Shown piece after piece: positions 33,638-64,000 of a stretch of DNA of 64,000 nucleotides. The position numbers were made by a program, and so were the translations under genes. How positions within the stretch are numbered: the first letter of the stretch is position 1; each line of letters begins with the position of its first letter. This stretch comes from an uncultured Gemmatimonadales bacterium (GTDB taxonomy: Bacteria; Gemmatimonadota; Gemmatimonadetes; Gemmatimonadales; Gemmatimonadaceae), in NCBI GenBank assembly GCA_963793305.1, contig CAWBZV010000010.1, positions 32,001-96,000 on the forward strand, in the 5' to 3' direction. A model generated the notes under the pieces. That model was not told the origin of the DNA. It made no database searches and saw nothing but the letters and a program-made list of their open reading frames with translations.

Positions 33638-35166
33638 CAGAAGAATCCCAGCTTCTTCGGGCTGTAGCTCACGAGCATGTTTTTGGTCTGCTGATAATGG
33701 TCGAGCATCATCTTGTGGTTCTCGCGACCGATGCCCGACTGCTTGTACCCGCCGAACGCGGCGTGCGCCGGGTAGGCATGATAGCAGTTCACCCACACGC
33801 GGCCGGCCTTGATCCCGCGACCCATGCGGTACGCCGTGTTCATGTCGCGCGTCCAGACGCCGGCCCCGAGGCCATAGAGCGTATCGTTCGCGATGGCGAG
33901 CGCGTCGTCCATGTCCTTGAAGCGCGTGACCGAGACGACCGGGCCGAAGATCTCCTCCTGGAAGATCCGCATCCGGTTGGTGCCCTCGAAGATCGTCGGC
34001 GCGACGTAGTACCCATCGCGACGGTCGCCCTCGTGAATGCGGCGCTCGCCCCCCGTGAGGATGCGAGCCCCTTCCTGCTTCCCGATATCGATATAGCTCA
34101 GGATCTTTTCCAACTGGTCGTTCGACGCTTGCGCGCCGATCATCGTCTTGGGATCGAGCGGGTCACCCTCGACGATCGCCTGCGTACGCTGCACCGCGCG
34201 TTCCATAAAGCGATCATAGATCGAGTCCTGCACGAGCGCCCGGGATGGGCACGTACAGACTTCGCCTTGATTGAGCGCGAACATGACGAACCCTTCGAGC
34301 GCCTTGTCGAAGAAATCGTCGTCCGCGCGCATCACATCGGCAAAGAAAATGTTCGGCGACTTGCCGCCGAGCTCCAGCGTGACCGGAATCAGATTCTCCG
34401 ACGCGTACTGCATGATGAGACGCCCGGTCGTGGTCTCGCCCGTGAAGGCGATCTTGGCCACGCGCGGGCTCTGCGCGAGCGGCTTGCCAGCCTCGACGCC
34501 AAAGCCTTCGACCACGTTCACGACGCCGCTCGGCAAGATGTCGGCAATGAGCTCCATAAATGCCATGATCGACACCGGCGTCTGCTCGGCCGGCTTGAGC
34601 ACGACCGTGTTCCCAGCAGCCAGCGCGGGCGCCAGCTTCCACGTCGCCATCAGCAGCGGGAAGTTCCACGGGATAATTTGTCCGACCACGCCGAGCGGCT
34701 CATGGAAGTGATAGGCAACGGTGTCGTCGTCGAGCGCGCCGATCGAGCCCTCCTGCGCCCGGATCGCGCCCGCGAAATACCGGAAGTGATCGATGGCGAG
34801 CGGCAGGTCGGCGTTCATCGTCTCGCGGATCGGCTTGCCGTTGTCGATCGTCTCGATGATCGCGATGTTCTCGAGGTTCTCCTCGAGCCGGTCGGCGATC
34901 TTGTTCAAGAGATTCGCGCGGTACGCGGGCGAGGTATGATTGAAACTCACCGCCGCCGCGTGCGCCGCATCGAGCGCGCGATCGACATCCTCGGCCGTCG
35001 AGCGCGCCACTTCGCACAGCGGCTGACCCGTGATCGGGCTCGGATTCGTGAAGTACTGCCCGCGCGCGGGCGGCACGTACTCGCCTCCGATCCAGTTGTC
35101 GTAGCGTGCGCGAATGGGAATCTTGAGGTTGGTCGCCGCTGCTGGGCGTTCGAGCGTGGTGGCCAT
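33637..35166 (-). CDS. aldB: aldehyde dehydrogenase (AldB/ExaC type)
   Basis: [49 protein letters not shown]. Confidence 0.93.
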
Positions 35167-35247
35167 GGACGCTCCCAGAGATAAAGAAAGGGGCGTGTAA
35201 TATGTGCGCGGGACGAGAACCGTAATAGCGGGAAAGCGGACGACCAC

Positions 35248-35264
35248 GTAGGGGAATCCCCGAC
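35248..35264. promoter_or_regulatory. 19-bp regulon palindrome, site 1 (core)
   Basis: (C)GTAGGGGAATCCCCGAC(G) between aldB and sulP. Confidence 0.65.
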
Positions 35265-35280
35265 GGCCCCGAACCGGCTC

Positions 35281-36963
35281 GTGAGCGATCGTTCCCGCTT
35301 GACCTTCGCGCCGAAACTGCTGACCACGCTTCGGGGCTACACCCGTGCCCAGCTCATCGCCGATCTGGGCGCGGGTGTCATCGTCGGGATCGTGGCGTTG
35401 CCACTGGCCATCGCCTTCGCCATCGCCAGTGGCGTCACACCGGACCGCGGACTCTACACCGCCATCATCGCCGGCTTTCTGATCTCGGCCCTGGGCGGCT
35501 CGCGCGTTCAGATCGGCGGCCCGACCGGCGCCTTCGTCGTGATCGTCTATTCGATCGTCCAACGATACGGGATCGACGGCTTGACGGTCGCGACCATCAT
35601 GGCCGGGATCATCCTCATCGCGCTCGGACTGCTCAAGCTCGGGTCGACGATACGGTTCATCCCCTTCCCGATCATTACCGGGTTCACGAGCGGGATAGCA
35701 GTCATCATCTTCTCAGGTGAGATCAAGGATCTGCTGGGCCTCCGCATGGGCGACGTCCCCGCCCATTTCCTGGAAAAGTGGCTGGCCTATAGCCAACACC
35801 TGGCATCGATCAACCCGTACGCGATCGCCGTGTCCGCCGGAACGATCGCGATCCTGATCGGTTGGCCCGCGGTCAGCCGACGTATTCCGGGCCCGTTGGT
35901 AGCATTACTCGCCGCCACCGCCGTCGCGCAGATCTTCCATCTTCCCGTCGAAACGATCGGCAGTCGATTCGGCGCGATTCGGATGTCATTCCCTCCGCTC
36001 CGCATCCCCACGGTTACGATTCGCAGCTTCGCTGAGCTCGCGCAGCCCGCGATCGCGATCGCGCTCCTGGGTGGCATCGAGTCGCTGCTGTCGGCCGTCG
36101 TCGCCGATGGCATGATCGGCGGCCAGCACCGCCCCGATACCGAGCTCATCGCCCAGGGGATCGCCAACGTGGTCACGCCATTCTTCGGCGGCATCCCCGC
36201 GACGGGCGCCATCGCCCGAACGGCGACCAACGCGAAGAACGGCGGCCGGACACCCGTCGCGGGGATGACGCACGCGGTCACGCTGCTGCTCATCACGATC
36301 TTCGTCGGCAAGTGGGCCGCGCTCGTGCCGATGGCCTGTCTCGCCGGCATCCTCACGATCGTGTGCTACCATATGAGTGAGTGGCGTACGTTCCGCGCCG
36401 AGCTCCGATCGCCGAGGAGCGACGTGGCCGTGCTGCTCGTGACCTTCGGCCTCACGGTGGTCGTATCGCTGGTCGTCGCGATCGAAGTCGGCATGGTGCT
36501 GGCGGCCTTTCTCTTCATGCGACGGATGGCCGAGGTCGCGGGGGTGAACGTCGCGCCGCTGACGGATGAGACGCCTGACGCCGATGCGATGAACGTGGCG
36601 GCGGGTCGCGGTATCCAGATCTACGAGATCAACGGCCCGTTGTTCTTTGGCGCCGCGGCCGCGTTCAAGCAAACGCTCAGCGATATCGCCAAACGACCCA
36701 ACGTCATCATCCTTCGCATGGGCCGCGTCCCCGCGATCGATGCCACGGGCCTCCGCACGCTCGCCGATATCGTGCACCGCTTCCGACGCGATGGCACGCG
36801 CGTGATCCTGTCGGAGCTGCACGCGCAACCACGACAAGCCCTCGAGCGGTCGCCGGTCATGGACGACGTCGGAGAGGAGAATATCGCCGACTCCCAGACC
36901 ACGGCCGTCCAGCTGGCGCGAGAGCAGATCGCCGTTCAGCGCGTCGTCAGCGCCACCTCGTGA
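35281..36963 (+). CDS. SulP/SLC26 anion transporter with STAS domain
   Basis: [53 protein letters not shown]. Confidence 0.95.
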
Positions 36964-37166
36964 GCCATTTCCTTCGGCTCCCATATGGCGACATGCCGCA
37001 TATACCGCCGTTTCACGACCGCCCAGGCCAGGTGAGCCGCATCGCTCTCGGGCCCACCGTACTGCGATGCGGCGTGGTTGAACGTCTGGCGATAGAGATC
37101 CTGCGCTCCGGGCGGTAGGTGCCGGCGCACACCGAGTGGAAGCTCCTCATTCGTCGCATACGGCAT
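36936..37166 (-). CDS. chaB: ChaB-family protein
   Basis: MPY...ELP..VR.HLP..AQDLYR.TFN.A, AWAVVKRRY. Confidence 0.88.
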   Translation of the reverse strand: MPYATNEELPLGVRRHLPPGAQDLYRQTFNHAASQYGGPESDAAHLAWAVVKRRYMRHVAIWEPKEMAHEVALTTR

Positions 37167-37213
37167 GGTTCCGTGCCTCCTCGCAGAATCGTATCAAGCA
37201 TCTGGCCGGGAGG

Positions 37214-37254
37214 TGTCACCGATTCCCCGACATGTTGTCGGCATCACCCTGACA
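37214..37254. promoter_or_regulatory. 19-bp regulon palindrome, tandem sites 2 and 3
   Basis: TGTCACCGATTCCCCGACA (37214-37232) and TGTCGGCATCACCCTGACA (37236-37254). Confidence 0.6.
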
Positions 37255-37276: not shown

Positions 37277-38923
37277 ATGCGCGCACCGCCCGAGATCACG
37301 GGTTTCGCCCTGCTCGGCGACCCTCGGCGCAACAAGGAGACCGCGTTCACGTATGAGGAGCGCGAGCGCCTGGGACTCGTCGGCTTATTGCCCGAGGCGC
37401 TCGAGGACATCGACCGGCAGATGGAGCGCGTGGTCGATCACCTCGCGCAAAAGTCGACCGATCTCGAGCGCTACATCTATCTCACGAGCCTGCTCGATCG
37501 CAATGAGACCCTGTTCTACAAGGTTCTCATGTCCGACCCCGCGCGCCTCCTACCGATCATCTACGCGCCGACCGTCGGCGAGGCCTGCCTCAAGTTCAGC
37601 CACATCTATCGCCGTGCCCGGGGCATGTACATCTCGTTGCGCCACCGCGGCCGCATCCGGCAGGTGTTGGCCAACTGGCCCATCCCCGATGTCCGATGTC
37701 TCTGCGTCAGCACCGGCGGGCGCGTGCTCGGCCTGGGCGACCTCGGGGCCGATGGCATGGGCATCCCCATCGGCAAGTTGCAGCTCTATACGATCTGCGC
37801 GGCGATTCCACCCGATGCGTTGATGCCGGTGCTTCTCGACTGCGGCACCGACAATCCGCGCCTGATCGACGATCCCCTGTATGTCGGGCTCCGCGAGGCT
37901 CGACCGACCGACGACGTCCTCGATGCTTTTGTGGACGAGTTCATGGAAGCGGTCGGCGAGGTGTTCCCCCGCTGTTGCGTTCATTTTGAAGATTGGAAGG
38001 GCGCCGACGCGCTCCGACTGCTGGCCAAGTATCGGGACCGCGCGCTGTGTTATAACGATGACATTCAAGGCACCGCTGGCGTCGTGCTCGCCGGCTTGAT
38101 CTCCGCGCTGCGGATCACGGGCCGCGCGATGAGAGACCAGCGCGTGCTCCTCCTGGGCGCCGGAGCCGCCGCCATCGGCATTGCTGACCTGATCGCCTCC
38201 GCGATGATCGCGGATGGACTGTCGCCGGACATGGCTCGCGCCCGCATCGCGCTCTTCGACTTGGGCGGCCTGGTCGAGCCGTCCCGCACGAACCTCACTC
38301 CGCAGCAAGCGAGCTACGCGTGCGATCGCGCCCCGTCGACCGATCTCGTCGAGGCGATCCGATCACTTCGGCCCACGGCGCTCATCGGCGTCAGTACCAA
38401 AGGCGGCGCCTTCACTCGCGCCGTCGTCGACGCCATGTCGGCGTTGAACGAGCGGCCGATCATCTTCGCGCTCTCCAATCCCACGTCGCAGGTTGAATGC
38501 ACCGCCGAACAGGCTTACGGATGGTCTGAGGGGCGGGCCATTTACGCGGCCGGCGTTCAGTTCAGCGATGTCCATATCGGCGGACGGCGGTTCGTGCCGA
38601 GCCAAGCCAACAATATGTACATCTTCCCGGCGGTGAGCCTGGCTGTGTACGCGACACAGGCCAGGCGGATCACCGACGACGTGTTCATGGCCGCCGCGGT
38701 CGCGGTGGCCGAACAAGTGCCCGAGGAGGCACGTCGTGTGGGCATGTTATTCCCACCGCAGCGCGACATCCTGGAGACCGAAATCCGCGCCGCCATCGCC
38801 GTGGCGGAACGGATCTTCGATGCGTCGCTCGCACAGGTCGATCGACCGGCTGACCTAGCTGGATGGATCCGCGGACAACTCTATGCGCCGGCCTATCAGA
38901 ATGCGATCCAGGCGAGGAGATAG
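37277..38923 (+). CDS. maeA: NAD-dependent malic enzyme (MaeA/SfcA type)
   Basis: NKETAFT, IYAPTVGEAC, LGLGDLG, FED, NDDIQGT, GAGAA, LSNPT, QANN. Confidence 0.92.
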   Translation: MRAPPEITGFALLGDPRRNKETAFTYEERERLGLVGLLPEALEDIDRQMERVVDHLAQKSTDLERYIYLTSLLDRNETLFYKVLMSDPARLLPIIYAPTVGEACLKFSHIYRRARGMYISLRHRGRIRQVLANWPIPDVRCLCVSTGGRVLGLGDLGADGMGIPIGKLQLYTICAAIPPDALMPVLLDCGTDNPRLIDDPLYVGLREARPTDDVLDAFVDEFMEAVGEVFPRCCVHFEDWKGADALRLLAKYRDRALCYNDDIQGTAGVVLAGLISALRITGRAMRDQRVLLLGAGAAAIGIADLIASAMIADGLSPDMARARIALFDLGGLVEPSRTNLTPQQASYACDRAPSTDLVEAIRSLRPTALIGVSTKGGAFTRAVVDAMSALNERPIIFALSNPTSQVECTAEQAYGWSEGRAIYAAGVQFSDVHIGGRRFVPSQANNMYIFPAVSLAVYATQARRITDDVFMAAAVAVAEQVPEEARRVGMLFPPQRDILETEIRAAIAVAERIFDASLAQVDRPADLAGWIRGQLYAPAYQNAIQARR

Positions 38924-40287
38924 AGGGTATTGTTGTTCCATGCGTTGCGGCCCGATCCATCGTAGCCACGCGCGGCCCCGTTGAACTGGTTGAATTGGAC
39001 CGCCTGCAGCGCCAGCCTCGTGTTCTCCCACGGGTTGAAGTCGAGTTCTTCGATCGTGCCCGCCGTTCGCGGCCGTCCCGAGCCGCTGCCCACCACCGCA
39101 CTCGGCGTGTAGAGCAGCGTATCGCGCGATCCATCGGTCGAGAAATATCCCAGACTGCCCCCATAGCGGGCGTTCGGCTGATACGAGCCGTTGATGCGAA
39201 CGGTGTTCAGGTGGTTGTGAAGGTTCGCGGCCACGGGCACGCTTTCGGCGACGAATGCATCGAGCCGTTGCCATTCGTGAATCCACGTCGAGCGCAGGAT
39301 GAACGCGCCGCCACCCTTCACCGGCCGCTCCAACTGCGCATCGAATCCGACATCGGTGTATGTGTTCGTCGGACCGCTGACTCCCGCCGGAATCTGCCGC
39401 GAGCTCAATCCGTACGTACCGACCATTCCGTAGAACGCAGTGCCGAACTGGTGCTGCAACGCCGCTCGCCAGTACGGCGTGATGCCGTTGATGGCTCCGG
39501 TCGCCGTGGAGTCCAATGGCGATGGCACCCCTTGCTGGGCCGATCGATAGCCGGTCGCCTCAACATAGACAAGGTTGTTCCAGAGGGCATAGGCGCCCAC
39601 GCCCAGCACCTGCTGCGCCAGGCCGCCATCGATCATCGTCGCGGCCACCGAACCCGGCGTCGCATTGGCGCCGGCAAACGGAAACCCCCAGGCCGGCGTC
39701 GTATTCCAGACATCCTGCACCGTCGGGTTATTGTGCGCCGTCACGCCGAACAGCAGATCCTTGCCCCCGAGCCGGAAGTGGTTCACGTAGCGGATGTCCG
39801 AGTTGTCGATCCCGAACGTGCCATCGACTTGGGCATAGGTCGCCTGAATGAATCCGCCGATGTGCGGTGTCAACGAACCCGCGAGGAATAGACTGAACTG
39901 TTGCGGGAATTCGGTGGCGTCGTTCTGCGTGCCCGGGAGCTTCTTGGCGAGACTCGTCACCGATGTCATCCACATGATCGACAGCGGGGGGAAGGGAATG
40001 AGATTGAGCCCGGCCCCGTTGCTCTTGTTCGGCTCGACGATCGCCTTCACGCCGAACAGCGAGTAGCCGTTCAGTTTGAACAACCGCCCGAACGGCGTGA
40101 GCTGGGGGAACTGATAGTGGCAGGCGCTGCACGCGAGCCCGGTCTGCCGCGAAAAGCTCGGGACGCCGCGCGCCTCCGTGACCGCCGTGTAGACGCCCGT
40201 CGGCATCACCGTGTGCCGCGACGAGGAGTACGGATGCGTCGCGTGGCCGACCACAAGGGTCGCGAGCAGTGCATGAATCGCAATCAC
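38896..40287 (-). CDS. cyc2: Cyc2-like fused monoheme cytochrome c-porin
   Basis: VPSFSRQTGLACSACHYQFPQLTPFGRLFKLNGY, FPQQFSLFLAG..TPHIG, NNPTVQDVWNTTPAW, beta-barrel ending WIAF. Confidence 0.85.
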   Translation of the reverse strand: MIAIHALLATLVVGHATHPYSSSRHTVMPTGVYTAVTEARGVPSFSRQTGLACSACHYQFPQLTPFGRLFKLNGYSLFGVKAIVEPNKSNGAGLNLIPFPPLSIMWMTSVTSLAKKLPGTQNDATEFPQQFSLFLAGSLTPHIGGFIQATYAQVDGTFGIDNSDIRYVNHFRLGGKDLLFGVTAHNNPTVQDVWNTTPAWGFPFAGANATPGSVAATMIDGGLAQQVLGVGAYALWNNLVYVEATGYRSAQQGVPSPLDSTATGAINGITPYWRAALQHQFGTAFYGMVGTYGLSSRQIPAGVSGPTNTYTDVGFDAQLERPVKGGGAFILRSTWIHEWQRLDAFVAESVPVAANLHNHLNTVRINGSYQPNARYGGSLGYFSTDGSRDTLLYTPSAVVGSGSGRPRTAGTIEELDFNPWENTRLALQAVQFNQFNGAARGYDGSGRNAWNNNTLYLLAWIAF

Positions 40288-40652
40288 GGCTTGGCCTTCC
40301 CATGACTCACGGCCCAGATGTAGGCCGCCACCTGCTGCACTTGGGCGTCGCTGATGCCGCCGGGATGCGACACCATCGCCGTTCCGTCGACGCCCTTCGA
40401 GATGACGCCCACGATCGCATTGAACGCCCCGCCCTTGGCGTCCTTCCACTCGTGCGCGGTGAGCTGAGGACCGATGGCGCCCTCGAGATTCGCGCCGTGA
40501 CAAACCAGACACGTCCCGGCGCCGTGAAAGATCGACCGCCCGGCATCGATCGCGGCTGGCGTTACCTGGGCCGGCACGTCACTGGTCTGCGCCGCGAGAG
40601 GACCGGCGACGAGAGCCAACGCGAACGGAACGCACAACGTGAGTGACCGCAT
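40284..40652 (-). CDS. periplasmic monoheme cytochrome c
   Basis: Signal peptide, CLVCH, GPQL, distal Met (TAM); GTGA overlap with cyc2. Confidence 0.92.
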   Translation of the reverse strand: MRSLTLCVPFALALVAGPLAAQTSDVPAQVTPAAIDAGRSIFHGAGTCLVCHGANLEGAIGPQLTAHEWKDAKGGAFNAIVGVISKGVDGTAMVSHPGGISDAQVQQVAAYIWAVSHGKAKP

Positions 40653-40726: not shown

Positions 40727-40745
40727 CGTCAGGGATTCCCTTACG
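40727..40745. promoter_or_regulatory. 19-bp regulon palindrome, site 4
   Basis: CGTCAGGGATTCCCTTACG upstream of cytochrome c-cyc2. Confidence 0.65.
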
Positions 40746-41766
40746 CCGGCTTGACGATGAGGGCGGTCACCATGCCGAACATGCCCTGCTCCGACTCCGC
40801 GTGCGGCAGAATGTGGCAATGAAATGCCCACGTGCCGGGATTCGTGCAGTGCACGAGCACATCCCACCGCTCGCCGGGCGCGATGTTCAGCGTGTCGCAC
40901 TTCCACGGCGCGGGGTGCGTCCAGCCGTCTTTGGCGATCACGGTCATCGGCATCCCGTGAAGATGCATCGGATGGATCATCATCCCTTCGTTCATGTAGC
41001 GGATCCGGATTGTCTGACCCTGCTTTGCGACCAGCGGCTCCGTCGCGGGGAATCCCTTGCCGTTCAGCGTGAAGCCCCCGAGTCCATCGTTCAGGATCAT
41101 CACGTAGTCGAGATCGACCTTTGGCTCGCTCGACGCGTCCTTCGGCTCGACGATGAATGCGCCAAGGAGACCCTTCATGACCTGCGTGGTCGCGTTGTGG
41201 TGCGAGTGGTACATGTGCGACCCCGAGTGCGGGGCCGTAAACTCGTACGTGAACGACTGGCCCGGTTTGATCGGTGGCTGCGTGAGGAACGGCACGCCAT
41301 CCTGGTCGTTCGGCACCGAGAGGCCATGAAAGTGGATCGACGTTGACTGATCGAGCTCGTTCTTGAGATTGATCTTGACGCGATCGCCCTCGCGCACCCG
41401 GATCTGTGGGCCGGGGACCGTTCCGTTATACGCGAACGCCTCGACCTGCTGGCCCGGGGTAACCTCCCACTGGATCTTGGACGCCGTGATATCGAAGATC
41501 TTGACGCCGTTCTCGACGCGCGGCGCAAAGAGGACGTTGCCCTTCCCTTCGGTCTTCGCCGGAAAGGCTTTGACGCCCTTTTCGCACATCGCGTCCATCG
41601 CGTCGGCGGCTGCCGTCGGCGATGGAGGAGGTGGCGGCGGTGTCGTCGGAGTCGTCGCGGCGACGGCTTCCGCGGTTTTCGCGCGACACGCGGCGAGAAC
41701 GCCAACGGTCAGCGCCGCGGCTGCACCCTCGCGGAGAAACTGGCGGCGGTTCGTTGCATTGGACAT
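40741..41766 (-). CDS. Tat-exported two-domain multicopper oxidase (T1 Cu in domain 2)
   Basis: NRRQFL Tat motif, LAAC; HFHG, YHSH, HPMHLHG, HCHILPH. Confidence 0.9.
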   Translation of the reverse strand: MSNATNRRQFLREGAAAALTVGVLAACRAKTAEAVAATTPTTPPPPPPSPTAAADAMDAMCEKGVKAFPAKTEGKGNVLFAPRVENGVKIFDITASKIQWEVTPGQQVEAFAYNGTVPGPQIRVREGDRVKINLKNELDQSTSIHFHGLSVPNDQDGVPFLTQPPIKPGQSFTYEFTAPHSGSHMYHSHHNATTQVMKGLLGAFIVEPKDASSEPKVDLDYVMILNDGLGGFTLNGKGFPATEPLVAKQGQTIRIRYMNEGMMIHPMHLHGMPMTVIAKDGWTHPAPWKCDTLNIAPGERWDVLVHCTNPGTWAFHCHILPHAESEQGMFGMVTALIVKPA

Positions 41767-41875: not shown

Positions 41876-41894
41876 TGCCGGGGATTCCCTTACA
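41876..41894. promoter_or_regulatory. 19-bp regulon palindrome, site 5
   Basis: TGCCGGGGATTCCCTTACA upstream of the MCO. Confidence 0.65.
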
Positions 41895-41933: not shown

Positions 41934-42329
41934 ATGACCGCCGTCCGCGTCACCTTGACTCTCGCGCGCCTGAGCGGCGTCGCCGTGCTCCTACTTGGCG
42001 TCCTGTTCTGGGCCGGGCAGGCGCTCGCGTTCGTCACGCTGCACATGGCGCTCGGCGTGATCCTGGTCCTCGCGCTCTGGACGCTCGCTGGCCTTGCGTT
42101 TCGCGCCGGCGTGGACCGCGCGACGGTGGCCATAGCCGTCGCGTGGGGATTCGTTCTGCCGATCCTGGGCGTCGTGCAGCTGACACTACCGCCGGGCGGT
42201 GGATACGGCTTCGTGCGCGTCCTGCATCTCGTGGTTGGCCTGGGGGCGATCGCTCAGTCGGAATCGCTGGCGGGGCGCATCCGGAGATCTGGCGCTGGCG
42301 CCAGTCGCGGCTCGGCGCCGAGCCAGTAG
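41934..42329 (+). CDS. 4-TM membrane protein with two intramembrane His
   Basis: LHMALG and VLHLVVG in TM helices. Confidence 0.7.
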   Translation: MTAVRVTLTLARLSGVAVLLLGVLFWAGQALAFVTLHMALGVILVLALWTLAGLAFRAGVDRATVAIAVAWGFVLPILGVVQLTLPPGGGYGFVRVLHLVVGLGAIAQSESLAGRIRRSGAGASRGSAPSQ

Positions 42330-53478: not shown

Positions 53479-53497
53479 AGCCGGGGATTCCCTGACA
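53479..53497. promoter_or_regulatory. 19-bp regulon palindrome, site 6
   Basis: AGCCGGGGATTCCCTGACA upstream of the multiheme operon. Confidence 0.65.
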
Positions 53498-56446: not shown

Positions 56447-56965
56447 CTACGCCTCGACCTGATTCGCGATACCAAGGCGGAAATCCTTGTAGTTGACCCA
56501 GACCGCGCCGTCACGTACTTCCGCCTTCAACTCGTCGAGCGACCGCGGCGGTGGGCCCGCCAGCACTCGGCCCGTCGTGATATCGAACTGTCCGTGATGA
56601 CACGGGCAGACGAAGTTCTTCGTGCCCTGATCGTACCCGAACGCGCAGCCCAGGTGCGTGCAGTGGGCATTATAGGCCTTGAACGTCTTGCCGTTCTTCG
56701 TGTAGAGCCAGACGCTATTCAGTTGCCGATCCTCCACCCACGCGTCGACCCTGCTTTCGACGAAGCTGACGCGCAGTGGAATATCCGTGTCGATCAGAGC
56801 AACGTCGTCGGCGACCTTCACCCAGCGATCGGGCCTCGCCGAAGACAGTGACGGTGAGAGGAACGCTCGGAGCACCGGAAAGCCGACGAGCGCGGCGCCC
56901 AGTGTCGCTCCGATACCGCTGACCCACTGCAGGAAGCGCCGCCGACCCACCCGTGAGTCACTCAC
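56447..56965 (-). CDS. Rieske [2Fe-2S] subunit of a bc-type complex
   Basis: GRRRFL Tat anchor; CTHLGC and CPCHHGQF; GPPPRSL. Confidence 0.95.
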   Translation of the reverse strand: MSDSRVGRRRFLQWVSGIGATLGAALVGFPVLRAFLSPSLSSARPDRWVKVADDVALIDTDIPLRVSFVESRVDAWVEDRQLNSVWLYTKNGKTFKAYNAHCTHLGCAFGYDQGTKNFVCPCHHGQFDITTGRVLAGPPPRSLDELKAEVRDGAVWVNYKDFRLGIANQVEA

Positions 56966-56976
56966 CGCCTTGCGCC

Positions 56977-57819
56977 TCAGTTCACGGTGATAGTTTGGAT
57001 CATCCCTTCCATGAAGTGCGGCTTCCCGTTCTTGATGTCCGGGATGAGGCACAAGAGCGCGTAGTTGCCCGGCTCGAAGGTCGCGGTAAACGATTGCACG
57101 ATGCCGGTGGCCGCGGCCGCAGTACCACCCATGGCGTGCCCTGGCGCCGGGCCCTGCATGGTGCGAGCCCAGTCGATGTAGTCCTGCCCCGTCTTGCCGG
57201 CGTCGAGCTGCACGACGAGCACCTCATGGGGCTGCCCCGGCGCGGTCACGACCTCGAAGGTGTGTGTGCCAGCCGTGATCGGCTTGGCGAGGGCGAACAC
57301 GAAGTCGCTCAGTGTGATGGCGTTGTCGGTGACCGGCGCGATGGCAACCGGCCCCCCGGGCGTTGCCGGCGACGCCGCGGTCACGGTCAGCGCGCGGTAC
57401 ATGCCTTTCATATAATGCGGCACGCCATTGGGCACGTCGAGAATGCAGATGATCGCGTAGTTGCCAGCCGCAATGTCGAGCGTCGCGGCCGATTCCTTTC
57501 CCGGATCGGGCACATTGGGGCCGCCGACATACGTTGCCCACGCCGGCAAGGCGTACTGTTTCTTGATCGCGACCAAGAGATCGGCGACCGTCTTGCCGCT
57601 GTCGAGGCGAACGAGCAGGGCGTGATGCAACCCTGGTCCGCGGTTGACGAGATGGAACGTCGTGACGCCGGCGGCAATCTGCGCTGGCGCAACGAATGCG
57701 AAGTCGCTGGCCTCTATCATCACGGACGCCGGTCCGGGTGGTGAGGCGGGAGGCGTCTGCTTTGATTCACAGGCTGTCACGAGCAGACCGAGTGCGAGAG
57801 CGGAACGGTAGGTGCGCAT
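56977..57819 (-). CDS. lipoprotein with two cupredoxin-like (type-1 Cu) repeats
   Basis: Lipobox VTA-C; H...GNYAIIC..PHYMKGM and H...GNYALLC..PHFMEGM. Confidence 0.75.
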   Translation of the reverse strand: MRTYRSALALGLLVTACESKQTPPASPPGPASVMIEASDFAFVAPAQIAAGVTTFHLVNRGPGLHHALLVRLDSGKTVADLLVAIKKQYALPAWATYVGGPNVPDPGKESAATLDIAAGNYAIICILDVPNGVPHYMKGMYRALTVTAASPATPGGPVAIAPVTDNAITLSDFVFALAKPITAGTHTFEVVTAPGQPHEVLVVQLDAGKTGQDYIDWARTMQGPAPGHAMGGTAAAATGIVQSFTATFEPGNYALLCLIPDIKNGKPHFMEGMIQTITVN

Positions 57820-57905
57820 GCGACCCCGCCAGCGGAAGAGGGAACGCTACGACTGCGCCATCATATCGCCGTCGATATGGTCCGGGAATAGGAGAATATT
57901 CGACG

Positions 57906-59937
57906 CTATGTACGGGAAACGCTGACAGCGGATGCCGACTCGAGCACGGTCTGATATCCGCTCTTCGCCCGAGACCGCTCCGCTTGCGGCCACATGACGA
58001 TCAACCCGCCGATGGCCATGGTGAGCCCGCCATACCATACCCACCAGACCAGTGGATTGAACGTGATGCGGATTTCGGCGGTATCCTCGTTGATCGCGCC
58101 GGCGAGCACCACGTAGAACGTCCTGAGCCAGGCCTTCCTGGATGCCGACCGCGGTCGACGGCTCGAACGTCCCGTTGCCGCGGCTATCGAAGTGCTGCCG
58201 CTTCTCGCTCTCGATGAGCGGCATGCGCTGGCCATCGCGGGTCGGCTTGAGCGTCACGGCAACCACATGGCGGTTGAGCTGGTCGAACAGTGACACGCCT
58301 TCGCTCACGAAGCGCCAGTGATGTCCGTATGGGTCGGTCGTTTCGAAGCTCTCGCCAGTGTGCAGCGTCACGTCGTTCTCGCGCTTGAACGCGAGACCGG
58401 CGAACGCGCAGAACAGAATGACCACGCCCGCGTGTACGATGTACCCGCCGTAGCGCCGACGATTCCGGCCGACGAGGCGCACGAATGCCACGGGCGCCGA
58501 TTCGCCGTGCATACGCCGGCGTGCCCCGACTCCCTTGTAGAATTCCTGCGCTATCGTCCCAGCGACGAACCCCGCCAGCGCATAAGCCACGACTGCGTGC
58601 CACTCGCGCATGCCCGCTGCCACCAGCAGCACACCGGTCGAAACGCCAGTGAACGTGGGCAGAACGAACTGCCGCTTGAGATTCGCGACCGACGCCCGGC
58701 GCCAGGCGATCAGCGGACCGATTCCCGTGAGCAATAGCAACAACAGGCCGAGCGGGATGTTGACCGCGTTAAAAAATGGCGGGCCGACCGTGATCTTCGA
58801 GCCGCGCACCGCCTCGCTCAGGATCGGGAAGAGCGTGCCCCACAGCACCGAGAACGCGATCCCGACCAGCAACAAATTGTTGTAGAGAAATGCCGCTTCC
58901 CGGCTGACCATGCTCTCCAGCTCGGCCTTGGCCTCCAAGTCCTTGAGACGAGTCGCCACCAGGTAGGCCGTGACCGCGACGCAAGCAACCAGCATCCCCG
59001 CGAACCAGTTGCCGACCGGTGACTGTGCGAACGAGTGGACGCTCGAGATCACGCCGCTGCGCGTGATGAACGTGCCGAGAATCGCGAGCAAGAACGTCGA
59101 CACCACCAGCACGACGTTCCATTTGCGGAGCATGCCCCGCTTCTCCTGGACCATGATCGAGTGCAAGAACGCGGTGCCCGTGAGCCACGGGAGCAGCGAT
59201 GCGTTCTCGACGGGATCCCACGCCCAATATCCACCCCAGCCGAGCTCGACGTAGGCCCACCACATGCCGAGCGTGATGCCGACCGTGAGAAAGAACCATG
59301 AGACGAGCGACCACCGGCGCACGGCGCTGAGCCACTCGGCGTCGAGCCGGCGCGTAATCAGCGCGGCGATCGCGAAGGCGAACGGGATCGCGGTCGCGAC
59401 GTAGCCGAGGTACAGGTTCGGTGGGTGAATCGCCATACCGGGATTCTGGAGCTGGGGATTGAGCCCGTTGCCGTCGGCCGGCATCCAGTCGAGGTGGTCG
59501 TACGGATTCGCGCCAAAACACATCGTCGCCAGAAAGAACAGCGTAATGGCCGACAGGGTGCCCGCGACATACGGCATGAGCACCTGATTGCGGCCACGAT
59601 TCGTCCACAGCGCGACGGCCGAATACGCGCTCAGAATCAAGCACCAGAAGAGCATCGAGCCGGCTTGCCCTGCCCAGAACGCGGTCAGCGTATACACGAA
59701 CGGCAAGTTGGCACTCGTGTACTCGGCCACGAACTTGAGCGAGAAGTCGTGGGTGATGAGCGCGGTCCAAAGTCCGAGTGACGCCAGCGCAACGAACCCG
59801 CACGTGGCATAGATCCCCCGTGCGCCGCTCTCGACCAGGTTGCGCCAATGGAGCGCGCCGCCGGCGAACGAGACGACCGTGGACCAGGTGGCGACGACGA
59901 GCGCCAACCAGAGGGACAACTCCCCGATGAGTATCAC
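57906..59937 (-). CDS. ccmF: cytochrome c heme lyase CcmF, apparent +1 frameshift near 58118
   Basis: WAGQAGS, NPQLQ, HPP, WAYVELGWGGYWAWDPVEN, SVHSF; tail DVYVVL..FNPLVWWVWYGG in the other frame. Confidence 0.93.
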
Positions 59938-60380
59938 GTCGTCGCGTTCGGCAACCGATAGCCTGGCGTGTTGCGATACTTCTGGGGGGCGTTCTCATAG
60001 CGCGACGCGCACTTGGCGAGCAGCGTCGTCGCGCGGAACGTGCCATCGTGGCCGAGTCGCCCTTCTACCACGACATCGACACCATCGGTGAACGTGTCGG
60101 GCGTGATGCCGCGATAGACGACCGGGTACGTGTGCGCGCCATCCGAGACTCTAAAGCTGACCTCGCGCCCTCCGGGCGTTCGGACGATCGAGCCCGGGAC
60201 CACGCGTGCACCGACCTTGACGCCGGTTTCGACGAACGTCGGGTCAGTGGAGACCTTGGTGGCGAGCTCTTGGGGCGTGAGATAGTACTCGCCGGTCGTC
60301 TTGATCGCGTTCGCCATCAGCAAGCCGGCCGCGCTGAGGATGACTACTCCGCCGGCCAGCCACATCGTCCGTGGGTGCAT
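59934..60380 (-). CDS. ccmE: heme chaperone CcmE, CxxxY variant
   Basis: YYLTP, VVPGSI, YRGITPDTF, VVVEG, LLAKCASRY. Confidence 0.92.
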   Translation of the reverse strand: MHPRTMWLAGGVVILSAAGLLMANAIKTTGEYYLTPQELATKVSTDPTFVETGVKVGARVVPGSIVRTPGGREVSFRVSDGAHTYPVVYRGITPDTFTDGVDVVVEGRLGHDGTFRATTLLAKCASRYENAPQKYRNTPGYRLPNATT

Positions 60381-60413
60381 CGGACTAATATCTCCCAGAC
60401 CTCCTGCGACTTG

Positions 60414-60432
60414 TGTCAGGGGTTCGCTGACA
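60414..60432. promoter_or_regulatory. 19-bp regulon palindrome, site 7
   Basis: TGTCAGGGGTTCGCTGACA upstream of ccmE. Confidence 0.6.
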
Positions 60433-60446
60433 TCATCATTGCGTCT

Positions 60447-60900
60447 GTGCCTCACGCCAATCAGCCCCAGATCCACGAGCTCGATCGCGCCGCCTGCGAG
60501 GCGATCCTCGCGCGGCACTCGGTCGGAACGTCTCGCATTCTGGCAGCACAATCGCGTCGATATCGAACCGCTGAACTATGTGTTCGTCGACGGATGGATC
60601 TACGGCCGCACGTCACCCGGCCGGAAGATCGAGGCCGTCGGGCACCAACACCATGTCGCGTTCGAGGTCGACGAAGTCGCCGGCCCGTTCGATTGGCGCA
60701 GCGTCGTCGTCCACGGGGGCTGGTACCGGATGGAAACAGCTCCGCCGGCTGAGTTGGCGCACTGGGAGCGAGGAGTCGATGCGCTGCGCAAGCTCGTGCC
60801 GGGGAGCCTCAGCGAGAGTGACCCCGTCCCGTTCCGAACCGTCGTCTTCCGCATTCACGCGGCCGAGATCACCGGCCGGGAATGCTCGCCACCTCGCTAG
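60447..60900 (+). CDS. pyridoxamine 5'-phosphate oxidase-like FMN-binding protein, apparent +1 frameshift near 60527
   Basis: ELDRAACEAILARHSVG/RLAF..PLNY..RTSPGRK..VAFEVD..WRSVVVHG..ITGR. Confidence 0.85.
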
Positions 60901-61564
60901 ACTCGGCGCTGACCTCGAGCCGATTCACGACCTCCGTCACACCGGGCGCATTGTACGCTGCCCGTTCGGCGTCACGGCGCTCGGCCATCGACCGGACGGT
61001 CCCGCGCAGCGTCACTCGTTCGCCGACCGCTTCGATCGCGATCCCGCTCACGTCCAGCCTCGAGTGCCGCAAGAGCGCCTTCTCGATTTCCCGCTTCACC
61101 TGACTCGCTGTCGGGATCGGCGGCACGACCACGATGTCGTTGGTGATCCCGCGAACACCAACCAAGTACGAGATCGAGCGCTCCGCGGATTTCCGCTGGT
61201 AGTGATACGGGACGGTGCCGCGCAGCCGAACCCACCCGTGCTCGACCGCCACGGCGACCGCGCCACGCGGGAGGAACGAATCCCATTCGATCGCCACCGC
61301 CGCCGCACGCGCAAGTGACTCATCCTCGGTCCGAAACGCGCTCGGCAGCTTGACTTCCAGCTCCGAGGCGACGGCGCGCACGCCCTTGACGCGTTCGACC
61401 GCCTCGATCGCGGCGTGCTTCTCGGCCAGACTCGGTAAGGACCCGGTCAGCGTGACGATGCCCTCCGACACCGTGACCCCGAGGCCCTTCTCGGTCACGC
61501 TTGGCTCCCAGAGAATCTCGTCGAGCACGTCGCGCTCGAGCTCCGCATCCGTGATCGACATCAT
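60869..61564 (-). CDS. OsmY-like triple BON domain protein
   Basis: DEILWEP, GIVTLTG, VKGVRAV, GWVRLRG, GVRGITN, APGVTEVVNRL. Confidence 0.92.
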   Translation of the reverse strand: MMSITDAELERDVLDEILWEPSVTEKGLGVTVSEGIVTLTGSLPSLAEKHAAIEAVERVKGVRAVASELEVKLPSAFRTEDESLARAAAVAIEWDSFLPRGAVAVAVEHGWVRLRGTVPYHYQRKSAERSISYLVGVRGITNDIVVVPPIPTASQVKREIEKALLRHSRLDVSGIAIEAVGERVTLRGTVRSMAERRDAERAAYNAPGVTEVVNRLEVSAESSEVASIPGR

Positions 61565-61986
61565 GTGAGCACCTCGCTGGTGATGCCCCGCACTCCGGGG
61601 ACGCACTCGAGCGCCTGCTCGACCAACTCGTAGGCCGCGGCGGATGCCACCCCACTCAAATTGACCCACCCGTGCTCGACGCGCGCAAACACGTCGGGTC
61701 GATCGGGGATCGTGTCGAGCGCCGCCACGATCGCATGCGCGATCGTCGTGTCGCTCAACGGCTGCACCGGCTCGCCGATGACGTGCACGGCGTCGGCGAG
61801 TGCTCGCACGCCCGGCACGGATGCCAGGACGCGCTCGAGCGCGGTCTTTTGCTCCTGGGTGGCGACATGTCCATTCAGCGTGACCACGCCGTCGGCGATC
61901 GACACAGCGATGTTTCTCCCCATTACACCGAGCTCGCGCTCGAGCGCCGTCACGATATCCACGTAGATCCTGTCGTCGGTCCACAT
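61561..61986 (-). CDS. BON domain protein
   Basis: DGVVTLNG, VPGVRAL, HGWVNLSG, VPGVRGIT. Confidence 0.85.
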   Translation of the reverse strand: MWTDDRIYVDIVTALERELGVMGRNIAVSIADGVVTLNGHVATQEQKTALERVLASVPGVRALADAVHVIGEPVQPLSDTTIAHAIVAALDTIPDRPDVFARVEHGWVNLSGVASAAAYELVEQALECVPGVRGITSEVLT

Positions 61987-62065: not shown

Positions 62066-62084
62066 TGTCGGGCCTTCCCCTACG
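62066..62084. promoter_or_regulatory. 19-bp regulon palindrome, site 8
   Basis: TGTCGGGCCTTCCCCTACG upstream of the BON genes. Confidence 0.6.
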
Positions 62085-62742
62085 TCGCCGTGAGTAACCC
62101 GAGCTTGAGGGCAAAGCGGACGTAATCCGCCCAATGCGCGAGGCCGAGCTTCTCGTGCACGCGTTGCTTGTACGTGTCGACGGTCTTCGCGCTGATCGAG
62201 AGCTTCTCTCCGATCTCGGGCGCCGTATAGCCTTCCGCGGTGAGACGCAACACGTCCCGCTCGCGATCGCTCAACGATTCGTAGCGGTCGCGATCGACCT
62301 TCGCCGGATCCTTTCGCGTGAGCCCCTGCGCGAGCACCCGGGCGGCTGCTTGGCGGACGTAGAGGTCACCGTTCGCCACCCCACGGATCGCATCGATCAG
62401 CTCGCGATCCGCGGATGTCTTGACGACATAACCAGCCGCGCCAGCCTGCAGGATGGGGACGAGGTACTCCTCCTCGGTGTGCATCGTGAGGATGAGCACG
62501 CGCGGGCGCGGACCCTTCGCGACGATCTCCTTCGTCACCTGGAGCCCATCGCCATCTGGCATGTCGAGGTCGAGCACAATGACGTCCGGATCGCAGCGCT
62601 GGGCCATGGCGATCGCCTGAGCTCCTGTGGACGCCTCGCCGACGACGGCCATGTCCTTGGCCGTGGCCAGCACCGCCTTTACGCCCGCACGGACCACGGC
62701 ATGGTCGTCCGCCAATAGCACTCGGATCGTATCGCCCAACAT
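62080..62742 (-). CDS. NarL/NreC-family response regulator (REC + LuxR HTH)
   Basis: LADDHAVVR, LDLDMP, LTMH, GAAGYVVK, LSDRERDVL..EIGEKLSISAKTVDTY. Confidence 0.95.
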   Translation of the reverse strand: MLGDTIRVLLADDHAVVRAGVKAVLATAKDMAVVGEASTGAQAIAMAQRCDPDVIVLDLDMPDGDGLQVTKEIVAKGPRPRVLILTMHTEEEYLVPILQAGAAGYVVKTSADRELIDAIRGVANGDLYVRQAAARVLAQGLTRKDPAKVDRDRYESLSDRERDVLRLTAEGYTAPEIGEKLSISAKTVDTYKQRVHEKLGLAHWADYVRFALKLGLLTAT

Positions 62743-62793
62743 TGGTTCCTCCCCGAAAGTGCTGGGAGAATAGTGAGCCGACGAGCCCGGGCT

Positions 62794-62812
62794 TGTCAGG
62801 TTCTCCCTGACA
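62794..62812. promoter_or_regulatory. 19-bp regulon palindrome, site 9 (perfect 7-bp arms)
   Basis: TGTCAGG-TTCTC-CCTGACA between the regulator and the USP gene. Confidence 0.7.
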
Positions 62813-62859
62813 TCGCGTCAGGCGGTAGCCCAATGCCACGTCGCCCAATTCTGCCGATT

Positions 62860-63639
62860 ATGGGTACTGTGTCTCTCCTCTTGGTCGCAACCGACGGCCG
62901 CGAGTCCTCGGCCGGCGCCGTTCGCCTCGCGCGCCGGTTGGCCGAGTCGCATAGGAGCGACGTCGAGTTGCTGACGGTTGGCGACTCCAGATCCGGACGA
63001 TCCGTCCAGGCCCTCTTGGAAGCCCTCTTCGCCTCGCCCCCCACGTGGCCGCATACAATTGCGCCCGGAGAGATTGGCCCGGCACTCACTCGAATCAGTA
63101 GGGAGCGCGGCGCGTCCATGCTCCTCGTCGGCATGAAGCCGGGCTCGGAACGGCGAACGGCGGTCCGGTTCGCGAGCTTCGCACCCATTCCAGTGCTGGT
63201 CGTGCCCGCTGACGTGGCTGAGGAACCGCGACGGGCACTCCTGACCCTCGATTTCAGCCAGTCCAGCCTGCACGCCGCCACGGTCGCGTTCAAGTTGTTG
63301 GCTAAGCCTGCTCGCGCATTCATGATTTCGGCGGGTCCCAACATCGTGGGCGAGGACCCTGAACCTCACATCGCAGTCCTGTTCGACGCGGTCGAGAACA
63401 TGCTCGGGCTGGACCCTGATATCGCGATCACGCAGCACAGCGTTGCCGGCGAGACGGCTGAAGCGCTGCTCCGGGTCGCCGCGAGCCAGTCTGTCGACCT
63501 CATCTCGGTGGGCCGCTGTGGCCGCTCACATGCTACCTGCTCCAAGCCCGGCGGCATCGGCCGAGTGGCCCGGGCTATCGTCGCCTCCGCATCGTGCGCA
63601 GTGCTGATCGCCGCCTCGCCGAGTCTGCTGCCATCGTAG
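62860..63639 (+). CDS. tandem universal stress protein
   Basis: LLVATDG, PVLVVP, LDFSQSS, DLISVG, IGRVARAIVASASCAVL. Confidence 0.85.
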   Translation: MGTVSLLLVATDGRESSAGAVRLARRLAESHRSDVELLTVGDSRSGRSVQALLEALFASPPTWPHTIAPGEIGPALTRISRERGASMLLVGMKPGSERRTAVRFASFAPIPVLVVPADVAEEPRRALLTLDFSQSSLHAATVAFKLLAKPARAFMISAGPNIVGEDPEPHIAVLFDAVENMLGLDPDIAITQHSVAGETAEALLRVAASQSVDLISVGRCGRSHATCSKPGGIGRVARAIVASASCAVLIAASPSLLPS

Positions 63640-63705
63640 CCCGATTGCGCAGGTCGTTACGGCACAGGCTCTTGCGATTGTTGAGCCGCCCCAGCAAGAT
63701 GAGAC

Positions 63706-64000
63706 GTGGCGATTCAACCCTCGCTGCTCATCACAGCATTTGAACAGGCGCCCGTCGCGATGCTCGTGCTGGATCCGGACGGATCCGTACAGGTCGCGAA
63801 CCCGCTGGCGCGCGAGTACCTCGCGGTCGAGCTCGCCGACGTGGGATCCGAGGCAGCTGCCTGGTGGCGCCGCGCCGTTCAACGGGCTGCGGAAGGATGC
63901 GTGGAAGTCAGCCAGGTCCAGGGATCAACCGGAGATCGCATTGTCGAATGGGTCATTCGACCTGTTCTGGACGCTGCCCGGAACCTCCTCGGTCTCACCG
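63706..64000 (+). CDS. PAS-domain protein, partial (possible sensor kinase)
   Basis: Manual translation from GTG 63706: AFEQAPVAMLVLDPDGSVQVANPLA; open to the window end. Confidence 0.6.
   Translation, partial: MAIQPSLLITAFEQAPVAMLVLDPDGSVQVANPLAREYLAVELADVGSEAAAWWRRAVQRAAEGCVEVSQVQGSTGDRIVEWVIRPVLDAARNLLGLT

Follow-up and report, generated by a model that had tools for sequence, protein, structure and literature searches.

A predicted porin–cytochrome conduit, linked to a [NiFe] hydrogenase, in a probable low-oxygen regulon of a Gemmatimonadaceae genome

Conduits in which a multiheme cytochrome fills an outer-membrane barrel are known from MtrCAB of Shewanella, and OmaB-OmbB-OmcB of Geobacter is a porin–cytochrome conduit of the same layout. 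OmaB-OmbB-OmcB is named in PMC5566968. OcwA, a surface cytochrome of Thermincola potens, reduces iron oxide, anthraquinone-2,6-disulfonate (AQDS), electrodes and, slowly, nitrite (PMC6703420), and the clade of OcwA and OmhA also holds MccA and has His-His pairs at two five-coordinate hemes (PMC9250108). Within Gemmatimonadota, Hya hydrogenases, Cyc2 and three MtrABC operons are described from marine members (PMC11316326), and Cyc2 with multiheme proteins from vent members (PMC9769843). Here we analyzed a stretch of 64,000 nucleotides (the window) from an uncultured Gemmatimonadales bacterium, assembly GCA_963793305.1 (genome G000; 5.72 Mb, completeness 92.3%, contamination 5.07%), positions 32,001 to 96,000 of contig CAWBZV010000010.1 (contig C10), and within it a block of 28.9 kb (35166..64000 of the window) that encodes a predicted porin–multiheme conduit, a [NiFe] hydrogenase, a Cyc2-like porin, a Rieske–cytochrome b (bc) complex, ccmEF and a NarL-type regulator (Table 1). 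This block makes up the left portion of a larger native cluster of ∼72 kb, rich in genes for universal stress proteins (USP) and BON-domain proteins. On sequence and structural models, we hold it somewhat likelier true than false that the block forms the respiratory part of a low-oxygen regulon native to the organism, and would export electrons at low oxygen with H2 as one donor.

An earlier sequence-only reading of this DNA had listed these modules, and all of them were recovered where it placed them, from open reading frames (ORFs) and from Pfam and NCBIfam searches of 29 proteins. Its figure of about 49 heme-attachment motifs also held, with 45 CxxCH (1+1+16+17+8+1+1) and four CX4CH giving 49; a six-frame scan found no heme motifs on the plus strand.

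The center of the block is the conduit operon. Its porin matched no Pfam or NCBIfam family, and by our own count the model has 22 long strands. A fold search returned other large barrels as best matches, with MtrB at rank 20 (Z 15.6, root-mean-square deviation (rmsd) 5.2, 365 residues aligned), and Foldseek gave generic barrels only, at template-modeling (TM) scores <0.5. The porin profile found 739 cluster representatives at E ≤0.001, and it was detected in 130 of the 300 genomes of the phylum that were sampled. Across the genome collection, 72 of the 75 porin loci are titled Gemmatimonadota or its subgroups and the other three only 'bacterium', in agreement with the origin first proposed, and the nearest named relatives of both the porin and the Cyc2-like protein are Gemmatimonadaceae. 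The 16-heme gene directly follows the porin gene at 68 of 75 loci, and a model of the two proteins as a complex scored 0.80 against 0.00 for the best control, a score reached by 116 of 157 solved pairs and 2 of 215 mismatched pairs, with the reservations that the model was built on our own alignments, holds no hemes and may echo the solved MtrAB structure. Between runs, at least 90% of contacts agree, the predicted local distance difference test score (pLDDT) of the partner is at least 75, and cytochrome residues 242–458 contact the barrel. The 16-heme cytochrome is therefore predicted, by this model, to sit inside the 22-strand barrel, which upholds the porin–multiheme conduit of the sequence-only reading. 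The 20-heme cytochrome matched TIGR03153 at E 1.6e-7, below the family cut-off. Porin–cytochrome fusions (L065, P0292, P0347, G271) were considered as Rosetta evidence and judged to be frameshift or read-through artefacts, because the printed junctions of L065 and P0292 lose sense. Gene content around the porin varies: ccm genes lie within 10 kb at 26 of 75 loci and Rieske genes at 12; some loci (L028–L035, L055, L059, L066) carry a tandem pair of nine-heme lipoprotein genes ahead of the porin and lack the NapC-like 20-heme gene there, and others (L074, L076, L078–L080, L084, L087, L088, L092, L095) have more large cytochromes, of 16–34 hemes, downstream of the conduit.

The nine-heme lipoprotein would form the outer end of this conduit. 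Its profile matched OmhA (6qvm, E 1.5e-17, aligned residues 90–450) and OcwA (6i5b, E 1.3e-11), its nine heme motifs are kept in 30 of 30 homologues, and it has the nine-heme core and C-terminal helical bundle of the OcwA/OmhA clade. At the two sites of the OcwA His-His pairs, in the register of the profile alignment, the first His is present in 24 and 21 of 30 homologues; at one site the second is present in 5 of 30, whereas at the other it falls outside the four commonest residues. These relationships also allow a different function, in which the lipoprotein is an enzyme of the NrfA/MccA clade that acts on a soluble compound (nitrite, hydroxylamine, NO or a sulfur oxyanion). The conduit would then supply this enzyme for respiration or detoxification, not for the reduction of solids. 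Cytochrome c554 groups with OcwA, OmhA and MccA in a single clade (PMC9250108), OcwA reduces hydroxylamine as well as nitrite (PMC6703420), and an Atlas neighbour of the lipoprotein carries the name of a putative nitrite reductase c552 (score 0.91). However, another Atlas neighbour belongs to the OmcB family (0.90), the closest solved relatives are surface metal reductases, the nitrite turnover of OcwA is just 1 per minute (PMC6703420), and a soluble substrate should not need a cytochrome-filled barrel. We consider a soluble substrate unlikely.

The hydrogenase, an electron donor enzyme, travels with the conduit. Among the 300 genomes the hydrogenase large subunit occurs in 77 and full-length Cyc2 in 51 (56 hits minus five weak N-terminal ones), and 74 of the 77 hydrogenase genomes also have the porin. 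When both stand on one contig (37 cases) they are at most 30 kb apart in 32, and the nesting of hydrogenase in porin genomes repeats within families (12 of 14 and 54 of 54). At several loci hypCDE lies on one side of the conduit and hydrogenase-hypABF on the opposite side. In G278, a genome of another genus, the conduit, hydrogenase, bc complex, Cyc2, USP, BON and regulator genes fall within 60 kb in a different order. The tallies include one unpublished genome (G157), and no claim depends solely on it. The proposal that the modules are linked in relatives therefore stands for hydrogenase and conduit and fails for Cyc2, which lies within 50 kb of the porin in only 3 of 36 genomes with both.

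The small subunit of this hydrogenase has the ordinary four-ligand proximal cluster motif QECTGC[T/V]ES, as do 23 of 23 rows from relatives (some genomes appear twice). Two extra cysteines at the proximal cluster are a feature of the oxygen-tolerant group 1d hydrogenases, and this subunit lacks them. The large subunit is probably of subgroup 1f, judging from its match to 3myr and from the small–large–cytochrome b–protease gene order, both of which we take to be marks of that group. No hyp genes lie in the block; those of this genome are on contig C5 beside another hydrogenase. That region (C5 910,600–928,300) holds a second [NiFe] hydrogenase, which we take to resemble the high-affinity group 1h type, with hyp genes (hypD in two frames), a second small subunit and a PAS kinase–regulator pair.

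A palindromic 19-bp box, with the consensus TGTCAGGGAWTCCCTGACA, is found before every operon of the block except that of the hydrogenase, which bears out the earlier claim of a palindrome shared by most promoter regions. The box matrix was built from 18 cluster sites, eight of them seeds from the block, and these eight still score 13.5–24.4 when each is left out in turn. At scores of at least 14, there are 9 sites in the block, 21 in the whole cluster, 11 on contig C23 and none in window 1–35,100, against 17 in the 5.6 Mb outside the cluster and its C23 paralogue; the sites are mostly intergenic and enriched in the cluster, and 12 lie beyond the window, up to 108,000. Relatives' loci had no part in training the matrix. 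A site scoring at least 10 precedes the first conduit gene at 12 of 27 loci titled Gemmatimonadaceae or Gemmatimonas, compared with 27 of the 211 remaining upstream regions of these loci, and at 1 of the 28 loci not so titled; such a site precedes the hydrogenase in 7 of 16 relatives. In G278, sites precede the conduit, Cyc2 and the regulator. A strict form of the pattern occurs in 26 of 69 genomes of the same family (reversed control 8 of 69) and in 15 of 125 of the sister family (control 15); in at least 15 of the 26 it lies within 2.5 kb of the regulator, among the matches listed and as read by eye. The genome G280, of another family, has the strict pattern 16 times on each strand, far above any other genome, possibly as a repeat element or an expanded regulon. 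Scans for sigma-70 promoters and terminators returned no more than shuffled sequence.

The candidate reader of the box is the NarL-type regulator, which has an orthologue (E ≤1e-65) in 62 of 69 own-family genomes versus 4 of 125 sister-family genomes, and the box between it and the USP gene may allow autoregulation. Twenty regulator loci were chosen from 71 genomes for long contigs, and at 10 of them a kinase with a conserved heme histidine lies beside the regulator, the histidine being kept in all 10 such homologues. In the kinase of the present cluster, the PAS domain matched FixL at E 4e-19 with the heme histidine aligned, so that a heme-PAS domain with its proximal His stands ahead of HisKA as in FixL-type sensors; the gene has one frameshift ahead of the heme-PAS domain. 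One oxygen-sensing switch thus appears, from these domains and sites, to be common to the cluster. In each of the four genomes of the genus g9, the highest-scoring site of the ccoN locus (4.4 kb) lies 102 bp before an in-frame start (L120–L123; scores 10.3–16.8). An FNR box was considered as the ccoN control in g9, and none was found in the four loci. In Gemmatimonas phototrophica at 10% O2, the cbb3 oxidase, hemN and a USP are induced, ccoN with a log fold change of 1.8–2.3 (Kopejtka et al., PMC11406998). By analogy, the box before ccoN and the induction of ccoN in a relative indirectly support oxygen as the signal. The co-regulation claimed by the sequence-only reading is therefore supported by the shared box, probably with low oxygen as the signal, except that no box belongs to the hydrogenase operon of this genome (best score <0). 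Some short-9-heme-type conduits (L041, L045, L047, L050, L051) have a different two-component pair, a 455-aa regulator and a 620-aa kinase, divergent to them, and at L124 (G278) a divergent gene of the heme-copper oxidase family is found close to the regulator and has two box sites farther upstream of it.

A box shared by stress genes and redox genes could also mark a general dormancy or redox-stress cluster, whose modules are adjacent but do not form one circuit and whose box is read by another factor or for another signal (NO, CO or redox state). The hydrogenase would then serve oxygen protection or H2 recycling, having a niche and not a wire in common with the conduit. This would account for the unboxed hydrogenase operon, for gene orders that differ between relatives and for USP or BON genes lying beside the porin at only 2 of 75 loci, and it suits HydDB, which lists group 1f as 'oxygen-protecting, unresolved role' (PMC5037454). 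It does not readily explain why the hydrogenase nests almost completely in porin genomes in two families, why hyp genes are interleaved with the conduit, or why the box is tied to the regulator and ccoN, and we regard it as distinctly unlikely.

In common with the Cyc2 family (Keffer et al., 10.1101/228056), the Cyc2-like porin has one N-terminal CxxCH, PXL four residues downstream (CSACH...PQL), 463 residues (>365) and a 16-strand OprO/OprP-like porin, OprP being among the tied top fold hits (Z 21.3, rmsd 3.6, 319 aligned). Its upstream motif, GVPSFSRQT, departs by two substitutions from AXPXFAR[Q/K][T/Y], and relatives have both FSRQT and FARQT. A cytochrome c accompanies Cyc2 in 7 of 20 relatives. 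A multicopper oxidase stands beside Cyc2 at 0 of 20 Cyc2 loci and by the regulator at 5 of 20 regulator loci, for which reason an Acidithiobacillus-like module of the two was rejected. A conserved Cyc2–oxidase module is not supported, and the bidirectional arm with Fe(II) uptake is weak because the two are not conserved neighbours. A small hydrophobic ORF (window 41,934–42,329, plus strand) lies between the multicopper oxidase and the hydrogenase operon.

Mtr/Mto porin–cytochrome conduits can run reversibly. The chain could take electrons mainly inward, from Fe(II) or reduced humics through Cyc2 or the conduit to the bc complex and high-affinity oxidases under micro-oxic conditions, with the cytochrome c, cupredoxin and bc complex as relay, or it could run both ways, as the sequence-only reading had it. 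The Cyc2-like fold and motif would fit such a route, as would the three heme-copper oxidases and cytochrome bd of the genome and a box (≥9.5, within 700 bp) upstream of Cyc2 at 5 of 10 family loci against 0 of 10 others. Yet no Cyc2 lies within 10 kb of the porin at any of the 75 loci, the distances given above keep the two apart in most genomes, the oxidase is absent from beside Cyc2, the conduit travels with an electron donor enzyme, and the function of Cyc2 outside cluster 1 is uncertain (10.1101/228056). Inward flow is in our view improbable, and we treat the Cyc2-like porin as a co-regulated accessory of uncertain role.

Beyond the window the cluster continues for ∼44 kb, to about window-equivalent 107,700, and on its left side the aldehyde dehydrogenase gene just left of 35,166 belongs to it. 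The part past the window encodes pyruvate kinase, phosphofructokinase, a PEP-utilising enzyme, a phosphoribosyltransferase and a nitroreductase; the heme-PAS kinase, many USPs and BON proteins, Hsp20 and an erythromycin-esterase-like protein; and a P-type ATPase, a MacB-type transporter, an L,D-transpeptidase and a second copper oxidase-like protein. By BLAST with the cluster proteins, 9 of 14 USP homologues and 7 of 10 BON homologues are in the cluster, the other 5 and 3 being in a paralogous copy on contig C23. This second, rearranged copy of the stress-gene part (C23 ∼3,500–48,200; ∼25.7 kb aligned at 68–88% nucleotide identity) has its own box sites but no conduit, hydrogenase or regulator, and is either an old duplication or a co-binned relative. 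A self-contained island of ∼28 kb, as originally described, is thus not what is found: the block is part of a larger cluster of ordinary composition, without hyp genes and with a partial ccm set. The claim of its own heme maturation did not hold either, with only ccmEF present; this pair duplicates a core pair on contig C2 (86–87% identical; nucleotide identity 83%), a ccmH-like gene is also on C2 and ccmB is on C5.

Contamination of the genome, five frameshifts in the cluster (one of them that of the kinase gene) and the stress-gene copy on C23 could mean that the block arose as a chimera of the assembly, came in as a foreign island or consists of decaying pseudogenes. This is largely refuted and very improbable. 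The GC content of the cluster (0.654 versus 0.649) and its tetranucleotide distance (57th percentile of the genome) are ordinary and no tRNA gene was found at its left edge within the window, which ruled out a foreign or mobile island; four tRNA genes lie to the left of the cluster, at window 21,911–22,167 and 26,079–26,154. Read comparison covered the four frameshifts in the block: the extra base is missing from short-read contigs at 52126 (runs X1, X2), 54160 (X1), and 58117 and 60527 (X1, X2 and X3, the last a peat metagenome of another study, in short pieces only), so these are assembly errors, and pseudogene readings of the nine-heme, zinc-ribbon, ccmF and PPOX-like genes were ruled out. 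Contigs of X1, a run that may be close to the source sample, cover 40,601–48,042 in one piece and bridge each later module junction up to 60,600, their breaks all falling inside genes and the whole stretch never being spanned by one piece; over 40,601–60,600, the short reads thus support the gene order. The presence of nearly all modules within 60 kb in G278 points the same way. In three runs of one study a joint connects 55049 and 59856 by bridging letters that are not in G000.

High-potential Rieske proteins typically have a serine and a tyrosine that are missing here, in keeping with menaquinol as the substrate, and futalosine-pathway menaquinone genes are present in the genome. The only other multiheme protein of the genome (5 hemes) belongs to an alternative complex III-like operon at C5 781,200–788,900.

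Table 1. Genes and 19-bp box sites in and next to the block (window coordinates)
Feature	Position	Strand	Remarks
Aldehyde dehydrogenase (ExaC type)	33637..35166	-	NF050026 above cut-off; box at 35256 common to divergent SulP gene
Box	35247..35265	.	between aldehyde dehydrogenase and SulP; leave-one-out 20.4
SulP/STAS anion transporter	35299..36963	+	PF00916, PF01740
ChaB-family small protein	36936..37166	-	PF06150
Box	37214..37232	.	between ChaB and malic enzyme; leave-one-out 19.1
Malic enzyme	37277..38923	+	PF00390, PF03949
Cyc2-like monoheme cytochrome fused to 16-strand porin	38896..40287	-	model pLDDT 73, 16 strands
Monoheme periplasmic cytochrome c	40284..40652	-	PF13442; overlaps Cyc2-like start
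Box	40727..40745	.	before cytochrome c and Cyc2; leave-one-out 23.5
Tat-exported two-domain multicopper oxidase	40741..41766	-	best PDB match two-domain laccase 2zwn, E 4e-50
Box	41876..41894	.	before multicopper oxidase; leave-one-out 23.1
YgaP-like membrane protein	42254..42775	-	PF11127; end of hydrogenase operon
Hydrogenase maturation protease	42772..43245	-	PF01750, TIGR00072
Hydrogenase cytochrome b (quinone reductase)	43238..43990	-	TIGR02125 above cut-off
Group 1 [NiFe] hydrogenase large subunit	43987..45702	-	PF00374; best PDB match 3myr, E 5e-229
Hydrogenase small subunit	45689..46819	-	TIGR00391; twin-arginine signal, C-terminal anchor (hydropathy)
Small TPR-like protein	46878..47306	+	between hydrogenase and conduit; homologue in 20/75 conduit loci
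16-heme cytochrome	47309..48715	-	in 72/75 porin loci; C-terminal half predicted to fill porin
22-strand outer-membrane barrel, no plug domain	48715..50154	-	model pLDDT 88, predicted TM score (pTM) 0.80
20-heme cytochrome (17 CxxCH + 3 CX4CH)	50151..51956	-	two N-terminal membrane helices (hydropathy), NapC/NrfH-like first domain
Nine-heme lipoprotein, OcwA/OmhA-related	51959..53423	-	first conduit gene; assembly frameshift 52126
Box	53479..53497	.	before conduit operon; leave-one-out 22.6; conserved in relatives
Double zinc-ribbon membrane protein	53558..54347	+	PF12773; beside ccm genes in relatives; assembly frameshift 54160
Monoheme cytochrome c after bc complex	54615..54947	-	PF13442
Cytochrome b fused to subunit IV and monoheme c domain	54944..56446	-	PF00033, PF00032, PF00034
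Rieske iron-sulfur protein	56447..56965	-	PF00355
Lipoprotein, two cupredoxin-like repeats	56977..57819	-	His, Cys, His, Met sets from sequence; no Pfam/NCBIfam match
CcmF, second copy of core gene	57906..59937	-	assembly frameshift 58117
Box	57909..57927	.	last codons of ccmF, before cupredoxin-Rieske-cytochrome b operon; score 17.4; no training seed
CcmE, second copy of core gene	59934..60380	-	
Box	60414..60432	.	between ccmE and PPOX-like gene; leave-one-out 24.4
Pyridoxamine 5'-phosphate oxidase-like (PPOX-like) protein	60447..60900	+	PF12900; assembly frameshift 60527
Two BON-domain proteins	60869..61564, 61561..61986	-	PF04972
Box	62075	.	before BON gene pair
NarL/FixJ-family response regulator	62080..62742	-	PF00072 and PF00196; proposed box reader
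Box	62794..62812	.	between regulator and USP; leave-one-out 16.5
Universal stress protein	62833..63639	+	PF00582
Sensor kinase start	63706..64000	+	GAF, FixL-like heme-PAS, GAF, HisKA; ends ∼2.1 kb past window

Taken as electron export at low oxygen, the genes would act in the following order. Falling oxygen would lead the heme-PAS kinase, by itself or jointly with another kinase, to activate the NarL-type regulator, which would bind the 19-bp box and turn on USP, BON and Hsp20 genes, fermentative and redox-balancing enzymes, the extra CcmEF and the electron-export chain. Organic substrates, and H2 by way of the Tat-exported hydrogenase and its cytochrome b, would feed electrons into the menaquinone pool, and the quinol would be oxidised by the NapC-like 20-heme protein or, for higher-potential acceptors, by the Rieske–cytochrome b complex. 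From there electrons may pass over periplasmic hemes to the 16-heme cytochrome that plugs the 22-strand barrel, and from it reach the nine-heme OcwA/OmhA-like lipoprotein, which at the surface would reduce Fe(III), humic quinones or similar acceptors.

Besides the reservations on the complex model, the unboxed hydrogenase operon and the activity of OcwA on nitrite and hydroxylamine, a number of observations weigh against this scheme. On the side of the conduit, the protein encoded before the porin is in several relatives a short 9-heme form with no membrane anchor, the OcwA His-His pairs are only half kept, 56 of 130 porin genomes are without this hydrogenase, and the genomes compared are kin, not independent samples. 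On the side of the switch, most conduits lie outside the family carrying the regulator; at 8 of the 20 regulator loci, the four of g9 among them, no site reaches 12; no site of at least 13 precedes this genome's own cbb3-like oxidase, and of three hemN loci just one has a site of at least 10. In relatives the regulator is accompanied by a HisKA_3 kinase, which a search of this 92%-complete genome did not recover (best hits 29–35%). Finally, the regulator has cytochrome bd genes as neighbours in 3 scanned loci, but G. phototrophica did not induce cytochrome bd at 10% O2 (PMC11406998).

Gemmatimonadota are usually treated as aerobic soil heterotrophs. They are common in soils, peat and sediments, their anaerobic lifestyle is little known, and the conduit is widespread in the phylum. 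It is possible, if still doubtful, that many members of the phylum respire Fe(III) or humics facultatively, fuelled in part by H2, as a widespread guild with a phylum-specific 22-strand conduit, an OcwA/OmhA-type terminal and, in Gemmatimonadaceae, an undescribed oxygen regulon of heme-PAS and NarL type that switches the conduit on through the 19-bp box. If true, these bacteria would use H2 and organic carbon to reduce iron and humics at oxic–anoxic boundaries; the group 1f-like hydrogenases, whose role is listed as unresolved, would gain one, and an OcwA-like reductase would have its place in the conduit of a diderm. To our knowledge, OcwA/OmhA-type surface reductases have so far come from Gram-positive thermophiles. 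The box and regulator offer a direct handle, as a motif predicting low-oxygen genes across a family with cultured members. Together with the OcwA-like terminal and the nesting of the hydrogenase, the regulon makes anaerobic electron export a testable proposal for a major phylum of soils.

The sequence-only reading knew of no characterised example of this combination. Full-text searches, with most subscription journals, figures and bioRxiv supplements outside their coverage, found no paper on this conduit with a link to a hydrogenase or on the box, and a search of the PMC11475568 supplement gave no match for Gemmatimonadota; the parts, such as Hya hydrogenases, Cyc2 and a porin–cytochrome cluster with petBC, are in print for the phylum. 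SAW209 is a karst metagenome-assembled genome of Gemmatimonadota with porin–cytochrome clusters and petBC nearby (PMC13264449), a likeness by description only. PCC3 and PCC4 also combine a porin with multiheme cytochromes (PMC5566968), and the five-helix inner-membrane protein with WX3HX13H described there is absent among the four operon genes here. The passages on SAW209 and on PCC3/PCC4 report neither a hydrogenase link nor a regulon.

Compared with MtrCAB and CymA (6R2Q), the locus has the same likely elements, namely a NapC-like quinol oxidase, a multiheme-filled barrel and a lipoprotein multiheme terminal in one operon. It differs in having 22 strands in place of 26 and 16 hemes in place of 10, and in a NapC-like domain fused to a 20-heme chain inside the operon. 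No decaheme MtrA/DmsE is encoded (16, 20 and 9 hemes; TIGR03508 30 bits against a cut-off of 192), and the porin is not a 26-strand MtrB barrel, so that only the general porin–cytochrome definition, a multiheme protein in an adjacently encoded barrel, applies, and this as a prediction. The nine-heme lipoprotein shares nine heme motifs, profile homology that includes the C-terminal helices, export and anchoring with OcwA (T. potens, 6I5B) and OmhA (Carboxydothermus ferrireducens, 6QVM), whereas its host is a diderm, its gene is encoded with a porin, one motif is CX4CH and the second His of each pair is mostly replaced. The Cyc2-like protein departs from the described family (10.1101/228056) in its upstream motif and in its heterotrophic host. 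As a regulon, the cluster resembles lxa of Burkholderia cenocepacia and DosR of Mycobacterium tuberculosis, both large co-regulated USP/BON clusters with a motif in most intergenic regions, and shares with them Hsp20, a nitroreductase, a sulfate transporter, phosphofructokinase, a cation ATPase and a two-component system (Sass et al., PMC3721108). Unlike these it has a FixL-type heme-PAS sensor, a hydrogenase and a trans-envelope cytochrome conduit, and its 19-bp palindrome is not the TGA-N6-TCA of lxa (Anr/Fnr type); by analogy we infer a DosR/lxa-like low-oxygen regulon. Each part is thus of a known kind, and the whole, judged from its genes, falls outside MtrAB, PCC3/4 and lxa on the features compared while it would work like them, with the regulon of box and regulator as the new addition beside the pairing of conduit and hydrogenase.

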